Shown here in pieces: positions 1 through 595 of a stretch of DNA of 595 nucleotides (position 1 is the stretch's first letter; the number at the start of each line of letters is the position of its first letter). The notes below the pieces were generated by a model. The model searched no databases. It saw nothing but the letters and a program-made list of their open reading frames with translations, and was not told where the DNA came from. A program made the translations under genes and the position numbers. The DNA comes from Escherichia coli (GTDB lineage: Bacteria; Pseudomonadota; Gammaproteobacteria; Enterobacterales; Enterobacteriaceae): NCBI RefSeq assembly GCF_003334255.1, contig NZ_QOWU01000217.1. One strand, given 5' to 3'.

Positions 1-68
1 AATCCGCTCCGTATACCGTGAGAGTGACATCGTACCGGGAGAACAGACAGCCATCAGCATACTGAAGC

Positions 69-90
69 AGCGCACAAAAAATATTGCGCT
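69..90. repeat. Inverted repeat AGCGCA / TGCGCT with a 10-nt A-rich spacer (CAAAAAATAT)
   Basis: Read directly: 69-74 AGCGCA is the reverse complement of 85-90 TGCGCT. Could form a stem-loop in RNA or be a protein-binding dyad. Function unknown. Confidence 0.35.
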
Positions 91-157
91 TCCACTTCAC
101 GTCCACCAGCAACAGCCCCCACCCCAGGAAAAGACGTTAGTAAGCATCGCCGTTGAT

Positions 158-170
158 CCGGAGTCTCCGG
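158..170. repeat. Inverted repeat CCGGAG-T-CTCCGG (6-bp arms, 1-nt centre)
   Basis: Read directly: 158-163 CCGGAG is the reverse complement of 165-170 CTCCGG. Lies about 40 bp upstream of ATG 209. No T-tract follows, so it is not an intrinsic terminator. Confidence 0.5.
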
Positions 171-200
171 CTCAGTACCTCCAGCGCCAGAAACCACAAC

Positions 201-208
201 GGGAAGAG
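201..208 (+). promoter_or_regulatory. Putative ribosome-binding site for the DUF1364 gene
   Basis: Purine-rich GGGAAGAG directly upstream of ATG 209. Spacing is short (about 4 nt from the GGGA core) and the match to the AGGAGG consensus is imperfect. Confidence 0.4.
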
Positions 209-478
209 ATGCCTGTATACACGCGCTGGGTAAAAACGCAGAAATGCATGACGTGCGGTAATCAGGCAGATGATCCGCATCACATCATTGGTCATGGACT
301 GGGAGGGATGGGAACAAAGGCTGACGATTTGTTTGTTATTCCGTTGTGCCGTAAATGCCATAACAAACTACATGCCGGAGTAAAAGATTTTGAAGAAAAA
401 CACGGCAGTCAGCTGTTGTTGCTGATTCGTTTTTTAATGCACGCGAGAAATTCGGGTGTTCTGAAGTGGAAAGCATAA
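209..478 (+). CDS. DUF1364-family (YbcO/NinX-like) small Cys/His-rich phage protein, putative zinc-binding HNH-like nuclease; 89 aa, complete if the ATG at 209 is the true start
   Basis: ORF-track ORF ATG 209 to TAA 476-478. Translation has CxxC (C13,C16), DPHHI (H24,H25), a Gly-rich GHGLGGMGTK segment and LCRKCHNKLH (C47,C50,H51,H55). From memory this resembles E. coli DLP12 YbcO (GTKPPD / IACSACH region), which sits immediately upstream of rusA in that prophage. Purine-rich GGGAAGAG at 201-208 is a possible Shine-Dalgarno. Start is uncertain because the frame is open upstream to position 2. Confidence 0.75.
   Translation: MPVYTRWVKTQKCMTCGNQADDPHHIIGHGLGGMGTKADDLFVIPLCRKCHNKLHAGVKDFEEKHGSQLLLLIRFLMHARNSGVLKWKA
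466..473 (+). promoter_or_regulatory. Putative ribosome-binding site for rusA, embedded in the 3' end of the upstream CDS
   Basis: Purine-rich GTGGAAAG with a GGA core about 8 nt upstream of ATG 479. Together with the TAA-ATG abutment this is consistent with translational coupling. Confidence 0.4.
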
Positions 479-595
479 ATGACCGAACGCATAGAATTTG
501 TTTTGCCTTACCCGCCGACGGTGAACACTTACTGGCGACGCCGTGGCAGCACATATTTTGTATCAAAAGCCGGGGAGCGTTATCGCCGGGCAGTG
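479..595 (+). CDS. rusA: RusA-family crossover junction endodeoxyribonuclease (Holliday junction resolvase), N-terminal 39 codons only; continues beyond the 3' window edge
   Basis: ATG at 479-481 immediately after the TAA of the upstream gene. Translation MTERIEFVLPYPPTVNTYWRRRGSTYFVSKAGERYRRAV matches the recalled N-terminal pattern of E. coli RusA (LPWPPSNNRYYRHNRG...VSAEGQAYRDNV): the LP-aromatic-PP-x-x-N, Y-aromatic-R-x-x-RG, VS, G-x-x-YR and V positions coincide. Not in the ORF track because it is truncated by the window end. Confidence 0.85.
   Translation, partial: MTERIEFVLPYPPTVNTYWRRRGSTYFVSKAGERYRRAV

Follow-up and report, generated by a model that had tools for sequence, protein, structure and literature searches.

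Genes at the locus

The stretch of DNA analyzed here (595 nt, referred to as the window) appears to cover the joint of two genes located late in the early-right ('nin') operon of a lambdoid E. coli prophage. It holds the 3' part of a gene of the DUF968/YdfU family and the start of rusA (Table 1). Several complete, annotated E. coli chromosomes that bear prophages contain the window at 100% identity. In one of these (NZ_CP116067.1), the sequence sits inside a lambdoid prophage in which regulators and replication-type genes, hokD, a 90-aa hypothetical gene and the 352-aa DUF968 gene are followed by rusA, a Q-type antiterminator, a DNA methyltransferase gene with tRNAs, and holin and lysozyme genes. 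A query centred on the junction recovered the exact junction of the window in 1,746 of 5,426 complete E. coli genomes, and the same query matched the rusA part alone in approximately 1,450 further genomes.

Table 1. Features in and around the window. Positions are those of the window unless preceded by L001, which is the coordinate system of the surrounding locus.
Feature	Position	Strand	Description and evidence
DUF968 gene (WP_021565037.1), complete	L001 7420-8478 (window -580 to 478)	+	RefSeq, 1,059 nt
DUF968/YdfU-family gene, 3' part	2..478	+	codons 195-352 and stop (last 159 codons); open frame, RefSeq, Pfam
Mosaic segment, C-terminal nuclease domain and junction	150..489 (approximate)	+	sliding nucleotide identity to loci L165 and L166
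Internal Met264 codon, ATG	209..211	+	no stop upstream in frame; Lys in K-12 YdfU
HNH/His-Me finger core, C-terminal domain	245..373	+	C276-x2-C279, D-D-P-H287-H288, D303, C310-x2-C313-H314, H318
Purine-rich patch GAAGTGGAAAG	463..473	+	weak rusA Shine-Dalgarno, -3.3 kcal/mol, 7-nt spacer
TAA stop codon of the DUF968 gene	476..478	+	read from sequence
rusA start and codons 1-39 of the 126-aa RusA Holliday-junction resolvase	479..595	+	remainder beyond the window; RefSeq WP_021565038.1
rusA (WP_021565038.1), complete	L001 8479-8859	+	RefSeq
Q-type antiterminator gene	L001 8856-9677		RefSeq

The hypothetical gene, the DUF968 gene, rusA and the Q gene form a same-strand block with gaps of +1, 0 and -4 nt around the junction, and the block is flanked by terminator-like sites at L001 6760 and 9760. 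No promoter-like site was found near rusA, and no promoter-like or terminator-like signal separates it from the DUF968 gene. Co-expression of the two genes, which the sequence-only reading had proposed, is thus well supported by the context of the layout; the genes of the nin block would be transcribed together upon induction of the prophage.

The upstream reading frame is without a stop codon from base 2 of the window to position 478. The mechanical list of open reading frames begins at position 209 because frames running off the window were not listed. The start codon of the complete gene is a GTG, located four bases past a strong Shine-Dalgarno sequence, GGAGGT (-10.6 kcal/mol). The length of 352 aa is the modal length of the homologues, hundreds of which are exactly that long.

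The downstream gene is a genuine rusA. Its product matches Pfam RusA (PF05866) at 1.8e-15 and phrog_34 at 6e-56, and it scores 5.7e-22 against NCBIfam PRK09786, which is below the curated cut-off of that model. The protein is 40% identical to K-12 RusA. Beyond the 595-base window, the full-length protein retains the equivalents of D70, D72, K76 and D91 (E. coli numbering) in an RRRD-x-DN-xx-K motif and a DD motif; Asp70, Asp72, Lys76 and Asp91 are residues with catalytic roles in RusA (PMC10956419).

The upstream protein and its predicted nuclease domain

The 352-aa protein matches Pfam DUF968 (PF06147) at 4.9e-62 over residues 160-344 and also HNHc_6 at 1.7e-6. A full-length match was obtained to phrog_96, annotated as 'HNH endonuclease' in PHROGs (5e-162, residues 1-349). 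The 89-aa fragment encoded from position 209 matches DUF968 on its own at 3.1e-37. The sequence-only reading had assigned the upstream gene to DUF1364, but Pfam YbcO/DUF1364 (PF07102) gave no match at E<=10 with either the 352-aa protein or the 89-aa fragment, whereas K-12 YbcO itself scores 8.9e-43 against this family. The DUF1364/YbcO label was rejected on these grounds and on size, the protein being 352 aa long as compared to approximately 95 residues for the stand-alone YbcO. DUF1364 is a distant sister family of DUF968, and the earlier label was thus a near miss.

The similarity to YbcO is confined to a short region. BLASTP of the fragment against YbcO aligned 30 residues and no more. With a profile of the domain, the best solved relative was YbcO (PDB 3g27, E 0.003), and an hhalign comparison of the domain with YbcO gave 87% probability across 34 columns. 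The profile and hhalign matches agree with the published placement of DUF968 and DUF1364 together in group 7 of the His-Me finger superfamily (Jablonska et al. 2017, PMC5714182). A search of PDB sequences with the full protein returned no match.

All characteristics of group 7 were found in the C-terminal domain: a beta-beta-alpha-metal core, the catalytic His, an Asp/Asn, the metal-binding His and the zinc-binding Cys pairs. We conclude that the C-terminal domain is predicted to adopt the zinc-bound fold of an HNH (His-Me finger) nuclease, with phage P1 Ref and YbcO as the most similar proteins. The nuclease function of YbcO and of the DUF968/DUF1364 group is in itself a prediction (PMC4999995, PMC5714182). 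Members of the DUF968 family from phages of Gram-positive bacteria consist of an Orf-like domain and an HNH domain (Curtis et al. 2014, PMC4118853).

The stop-start junction

The TAA stop codon of the upstream gene (476-478) is directly followed by the ATG of rusA (479-481) with a gap of 0 nt, and the two genes are in the same frame (479-209 = 270). The purine-rich patch is present at 463-473, inside the end of the upstream gene. All three features agree with what had been read from the sequence. The abutment was observed in 60 of 60 near-identical viral loci, scanned with a 10-sequence alignment; the stop codon is TAA in 28 of these and TGA in 32.

The abutment is nevertheless ordinary and not beyond chance, because the other joints of this operon and those of phage 82 are equally tight, and because 24% of the same-strand gene pairs in E. 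coli K-12 are separated by -8 to +6 nt (PMC10666635). The neighbouring joints in the window prophage measure +1 and -4 nt, and every joint in the nin operon of the phage 82 record is an overlap (-4, -1, -8, -4, -4 and -4). Since all junctions of the operon are equally tight, the tightness says nothing about a partnership, and the proposal that it signals a functional link between the two proteins is not borne out. A gap of 0 nt is also rarer than gaps of -4 or -1 nt, which weighs somewhat against the translational coupling discussed below.

The RNA around the junction is predicted to be no more stable than shuffled controls (z = +0.62), and no structure hiding the rusA start was found. A mechanism in which translation opens an RNA structure that masks this start is therefore not indicated. 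Rfam gave no match in the window.

Probable mosaic origin of the junction

A sister lineage, represented by E. albertii, O157:H7, strain 190 and four viral contigs, sheds light on how the abutment may have arisen. The loci of E. coli O157:H7, strain 190 and E. albertii have the same gene order as the window. The N-terminal domain of the upstream protein is 85-87% identical between the two lineages and RusA is 84-87% identical, whereas the C-terminal domain allele of the sister lineage is only 60% identical to that of the window. The junction differs as well: it reads TAA-AAGAGGTGACTG-ATG in the sister lineage, with a 12-nt spacer, AAGAGGT(T/G)ACTG, instead of the abutment. The AAGAGGT(T/G) element in this spacer is a canonical Shine-Dalgarno sequence (-6.5 to -7.1 kcal/mol). 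In a base-for-base alignment, the TAA of the sister lineage corresponds to TGG in the window lineage, so that the latter reads four extra codons (KWKA) through the spacer of the sister; the Shine-Dalgarno sequence is lost and rusA starts 4 nt earlier.

The nucleotide identity to the O157 and strain-190 loci (L165 and L166) is 80-90% up to position ~150, drops to 45-73% from ~150 to 489 and rises to 95-100% from position 490. Thus, the identity profile suggests that the nuclease domain and the junction were exchanged as one module with its right edge at the start of rusA. Judged from these alignments, the abutment appears to be a side effect of mosaic evolution, the swapped-in nuclease domain running four codons further. 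The finding of one RusA lineage behind different nuclease-domain alleles argues against a co-adapted protein pair.

Plausible translational coupling

Based on the sequence of the junction, translational coupling from the DUF968 gene to rusA is plausible. The Shine-Dalgarno sequence of rusA is among the weakest in the locus, the neighbouring genes having values of -7.8 to -10.6 kcal/mol. The layout has the properties of termination-reinitiation pairs, with both genes on the same strand, no separating signal and a gap of 0 nt that falls within the stop-start distance class of -8 to +6 nt defined previously (PMC10666635). Termination-reinitiation in E. coli needs such short distances, and experiments in this species have shown that most overlapping pairs are strictly coupled and that coupling falls off steeply as the distance grows (PMC6728339, PMC10666635). 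Because the stop and start codons abut and the Shine-Dalgarno sequence is weak, ribosomes that end translation of the nuclease gene probably reinitiate at rusA, and the output of rusA would depend, at least in part, on translation of that gene. A weak Shine-Dalgarno sequence with an abutment and a good Shine-Dalgarno sequence with a spacer look like alternative solutions in the two lineages, as expected if the abutted version relies on reinitiation. The retention of the abutment in all 60 viral loci, despite the change between TAA and TGA, also adds to the plausibility of coupling.

Taken together, we favor the explanation that the window holds a mosaic operon joint between the end of a DUF968 gene and rusA, with probable reinitiation at rusA and with the abutment as an evolutionary by-product. 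We assign this reading a probability of approximately 0.75.

The main alternative, which we consider possible but clearly less likely, is that rusA initiates independently from its own weak, A-rich and unstructured region and that the abutment is a matter of compact gene packing without consequence for regulation. The RNA at the junction lacks structure, leaving the rusA start accessible with nothing to block independent initiation, and a GGA/GAAG element is located 7-8 nt 5' of the start codon. In the sister lineage, translation of rusA clearly relies on an ordinary Shine-Dalgarno sequence in the 12-nt spacer, and therefore rusA has no intrinsic need for coupling; furthermore, the contribution of coupling differs between gene pairs (PMC10666635). 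However, independent initiation would have to depend on one of the weakest Shine-Dalgarno sequences of the locus, and in E. coli distances of 0 to +2 nt usually keep most of the reinitiation, with most of the tested overlapping pairs being strictly coupled. The abutted junction with its weak Shine-Dalgarno sequence and the junction spaced by 12 nt with a strong one, both of which occur naturally, represent a ready-made test system for coupling.

The sequence-only reading had also suggested, with reference to K-12, that expression of rusA could depend on read-through from the upstream gene. It is correct that K-12 rusA is silent: the defective DLP12 prophage is untranscribed, and insertions of IS2 or IS10 restore transcription (PMC1636454, PMC10956419). 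However, this precedent concerns transcription in a defective prophage and not translational read-through, and it therefore has no bearing on translational dependence in a prophage that is apparently intact.

Gene neighbourhoods of rusA

We surveyed the neighbours of rusA for both nuclease families. In the phage collection, for which the counts are not dereplicated, 309 records match the YbcO family, 149 of them over the full length. RusA is located directly downstream in approximately 132 of the 149 records with a full-length homologue, as defined by a chimeric YbcO+RusA query covered to at least 80% in one place. These records extend down to 49-61% identity and include HK620, SPN9CC and phages of Yersinia and Mannheimia.

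For DUF968, we selected one genome per species and analyzed the 80 best-matching loci, mostly from Enterobacterales. The locus scans rely on the peptide patterns ADDPHH and CRxCH and are biased to Enterobacterales, and a small number of the contigs have the appearance of assembly contamination. RusA was identified within 3-4 kb by an HMM built from the same loci (E<1e-4), and the HMM for the HNH domain was likewise local. In this set, rusA is located directly downstream of the DUF968 gene in only 2 of the 80 loci. It is found directly upstream in 9 loci, mostly with a 4-nt overlap, at a distance of 0.7-1.2 kb upstream in 28 loci, with an Ant/KilA-type regulator gene in between, and 1.4-2.9 kb upstream in 6 loci; one more locus has rusA upstream with no gap size assigned. 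No rusA was identified within 4 kb in 33 loci, and the contig is truncated in one case. The constant downstream neighbour of DUF968 is a Q-type antiterminator gene, directly adjacent in approximately 60 of the 80 best-matching loci and also in the Qin prophage of K-12. In the phage collection, again counted with redundancy, the DUF968-type domain was found in 133 records, 44 of which have rusA within joining distance. The order seen in the window occurs in approximately 17 of the 133 records, and the order is reversed in Klebsiella phages.

Rap/NinG and Orf/NinB were considered as replacements for RusA and rejected, as phmmer identified no homologue of either within 4 kb of the DUF968 loci that lack RusA. 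No RusA was seen beside the stand-alone 90-100-aa proteins of the DUF968 type in metagenomes, but the contigs there are ~1 kb long and thus uninformative. RusA was also observed beside Ref-like genes in phages of Vibrio and beside rap in mEp044.

Thus, the conserved gene order cited in the sequence-only reading holds for YbcO but not for the DUF968 family to which the upstream gene belongs. The order of DUF968 followed by rusA is an Escherichia feature and not a conserved pair, although RusA and the group-7 or Ref-like nucleases tend to share the nin region.

A possible functional partnership with RusA

An action of DUF968 and DUF1364 proteins together with RusA in recombination is a published hypothesis (PMC5714182, PMC4118853), and both proteins of the window probably serve phage recombination or replication restart. 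A stronger version would be that the small nuclease-like protein has RusA as its dedicated partner, possibly in a complex, with coupling setting their stoichiometry for the processing of recombination intermediates. The adjacency of YbcO and RusA in phage records down to 49% identity is in line with this idea, as are the positions of RusA beside Ref-like and Rap nuclease genes, the enrichment of short overlaps among genes for subunits of complexes, and the architectures reported from CDD in which DUF968 is fused to Erf, Rad52 or RusA (Curtis et al. 2014, PMC4118853). In the protein sets examined here, by contrast, no DUF968-RusA fusion was present among 269 homologues, and such a fusion was discarded as a candidate. 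The scattered positions of rusA around DUF968 genes, the constancy of Q as the 3' neighbour and the overlap of every joint in the phage 82 nin operon speak against a dedicated pair. The same applies to the free exchange of modules at the junction, by which the same RusA lineage is found beside such divergent nuclease domains. RusA is described as a homodimer that acts independently (PMC10956419); it has no need of a partner, and a complex with the DUF968 protein would be hypothetical. We therefore consider a dedicated pair unlikely.

A broader proposal, which we rate marginally lower still, is that His-Me finger nucleases of the Ref, YbcO and DUF968 types and RusA form a recurrent two-nuclease recombination module of temperate phages, with the tight linkage setting their ratio. 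In such a module, cutting or nicking of D-loops or stalled forks would be the task of the HNH enzyme, and the junctions it produces would be resolved by RusA. If true, this would give two large families of uncharacterized proteins their first function.

Proposed internal start and fusion products

The sequence-only reading had described the upstream gene as an 89-aa gene starting at position 209. That an 89-aa stand-alone HNH protein is made from this ATG, either as the sole product or alongside the long protein as an isoform initiated internally, is very improbable. The sequence GGGAAGAG precedes the ATG, and Met264 is kept in 119 of 121 close homologues, but this conservation is uninformative because the close homologues are at least 89% identical. 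Many stand-alone homologues of 90-115 aa begin to align at about Met264, and ATG 209 therefore marks a domain boundary and not a gene start. As the main start of the gene, it is ruled out by the open frame upstream, by the Lys found at this position in K-12-type proteins and by its poor Shine-Dalgarno sequence (-4.3 kcal/mol with a spacer of only 2-3 nt); the RefSeq gene of 1,059 nt and the 352-aa homologues also contradict a short gene. The full-length DUF968 protein was modelled with high confidence on both sides of Met264 (pLDDT 86).

Least credible of all is a DUF968-RusA fusion protein made by read-through of the in-frame TAA, for although the two frames are separated by a single stop codon and fused architectures are said to exist elsewhere (PMC4118853), the stop is retained in all 60 related loci with alternation between TAA and TGA, the spacer of the sister lineage contains both a TAA and a TGA stop in frame, the 269 homologues include no such fusion, and neither a read-through signal nor an RNA structure was found.

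Comparison with known systems

The junction is an ordinary and already annotated operon joint, and as such it is already known. Both genes are annotated in RefSeq, the layout with a nuclease gene, rusA and Q has been known since 1996 from the sequence of phage 82, and the RusA neighbourhood and a recombination role of DUF968/DUF1364 proteins were proposed in 2014 and 2017. The observation made in the earlier reading is thus partly confirmed and its interpretation partly supported, with three corrections: the upstream sequence is a gene fragment and not a small gene, it belongs to DUF968 and not to DUF1364, and the tight spacing characterizes the operon as a whole.

A known relative of the upstream protein is found in the Qin prophage of K-12. 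YdfU (b1560) is 77% identical over the full length and has the same two-domain layout, and its gene occupies the same place in the prophage, just ahead of Q. Unlike in the window, the Q-like ydfT directly follows ydfU with no rusA between them. The C-terminal domain of YdfU is approximately 59% identical, and it has CRKHH where the window protein has CRKCH. Phage P1 Ref, a RecA-dependent HNH nuclease (PDB 3plw), gave no significant sequence match to the window protein and is without the 240-residue N-terminal part that is present in the latter.

The reinitiation pairs studied by Huber et al. (2019, 2023) resemble the window pair in being same-strand pairs of the -8 to +6-nt class. They differ in that their distances are usually -4 or -1 nt, whereas the window pair has a distance of 0 nt, which is outside those tested.

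The ybcO-rusA pair of DLP12 and the orf96-rus pair of phage 82 (Mahdi et al. 1996; X92588.1) also have a gene for a His-Me finger nuclease-like protein directly before rusA. Both pairs are located in the nin region with a tight junction, as in the window, and are followed by Q after a short ORF. However, YbcO is a stand-alone protein of 96 aa from a different Pfam family (PF07102), the likeness of which to the window protein is limited to a core of 30-40 residues, and RusA of DLP12 is 40% identical to RusA of the window. In K-12, ybcO and rusA overlap by 4 nt (GTGA) and the Shine-Dalgarno sequence is strong (-11.7 kcal/mol), unlike at the abutted junction of the window.

Mosaic structure of the DUF968-rusA junction

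The C-terminal nuclease domain of DUF968 and the junction with rusA form a mosaic module, with approximate boundaries at positions 150 and 489 of the window. Inside this segment (~150-489), the window and the sister E. coli DUF968-rusA loci share only 45-73% nucleotide identity, as compared to 80-90% upstream and 95-100% downstream. The jump to 95-100% after ~489 therefore places the right edge of the module exactly at the 5' end of rusA.

A weak terminator-like hairpin was located within the DUF968 coding region, approximately 55 nt upstream of the stop codon. The stem consists of 7 pairs, 3 of which are G-C. The scan of the 4-kb region returned 11 terminator-like matches, as compared to 4.1 +/- 2.0 expected, and this hairpin is probably a chance occurrence.

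Features of the window and of the surrounding prophage locus L001 (NZ_CP116067.1)
Feature	Window	L001	Remark
Weak hairpin, then ATTCGTTTTTT	403-424	8403-8427	Terminator-like in scan
Conserved Cys/His cluster, C93 ... L-C118-W-H-C121-D-N	outside	7696-7790	Residues 93-125, N-terminal half of the 352-aa DUF968 protein
QueH-like epoxyqueuosine reductase gene, hokD, DNA methyltransferase, tRNA-Ile, tRNA-Arg, small ORF annotated TolA		3797-4462, 4700-4855, 10252-11512, 11791-12219	Same prophage

Neighbors of rusA in other phages

The rusA gene of Vibrio phages abuts, or overlaps with, a gene whose annotation reads "recombination enhancement RecA-dependent nuclease" (Ref-like HNH), and that of mEp044 abuts rap; records MG592489.1, MG592457.1 and PP180004.1 are cited as examples of rusA beside Ref-like or rap genes. 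Thus, RusA is a recurrent neighbor of several different families of His-Me finger nucleases. The nin operon of phage 82 (X92588.1) has an overlap at each of its six successive gene junctions (-4, -1, -8, -4, -4 and -4 nt), and in every case a ribosome-binding site is annotated within the preceding gene.

Aberrant homologs and probable contaminant sequences

The abutted junction of the window recurs in IMGVR_UViG_2859821903_000003, where the match to the RusA HMM begins 777 nt past the stop codon, an offset which suggests that rusA is interrupted. Among the homologous proteins, P0106 (419 aa) is a DUF968 protein with a frameshift, running out of frame into rusA. In P0001 (411 aa) and P0003 (449 aa), segments of DUF968 are duplicated internally. 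Prophage sequence of the Enterobacterales type was also observed inside assemblies from unrelated taxa, namely a 1,472-nt contig of the MAG "Collinsella sp." (97% identical to the window protein) and "Chryseobacterium sp. 18061". Both are likely to represent contamination or mis-binning.

Cys/His sites of the DUF968 protein

In the AF2 model, the N-terminal Cys/His cluster is located on a beta-hairpin and a helix, and may represent a second treble-clef or a degenerate His-Me finger; no convincing structural neighbor was found for the N-terminal domain of the 352-aa protein. The zinc site of the window lineage (gene at L001 7420-8478) is of the canonical CxxC...CxxC type, with the sequence CRKCH, whereas K-12 YdfU (3256-4305 in the Qin prophage locus L003) and many relatives carry CRKHH or CREHH, in which the fourth Cys is replaced by His.
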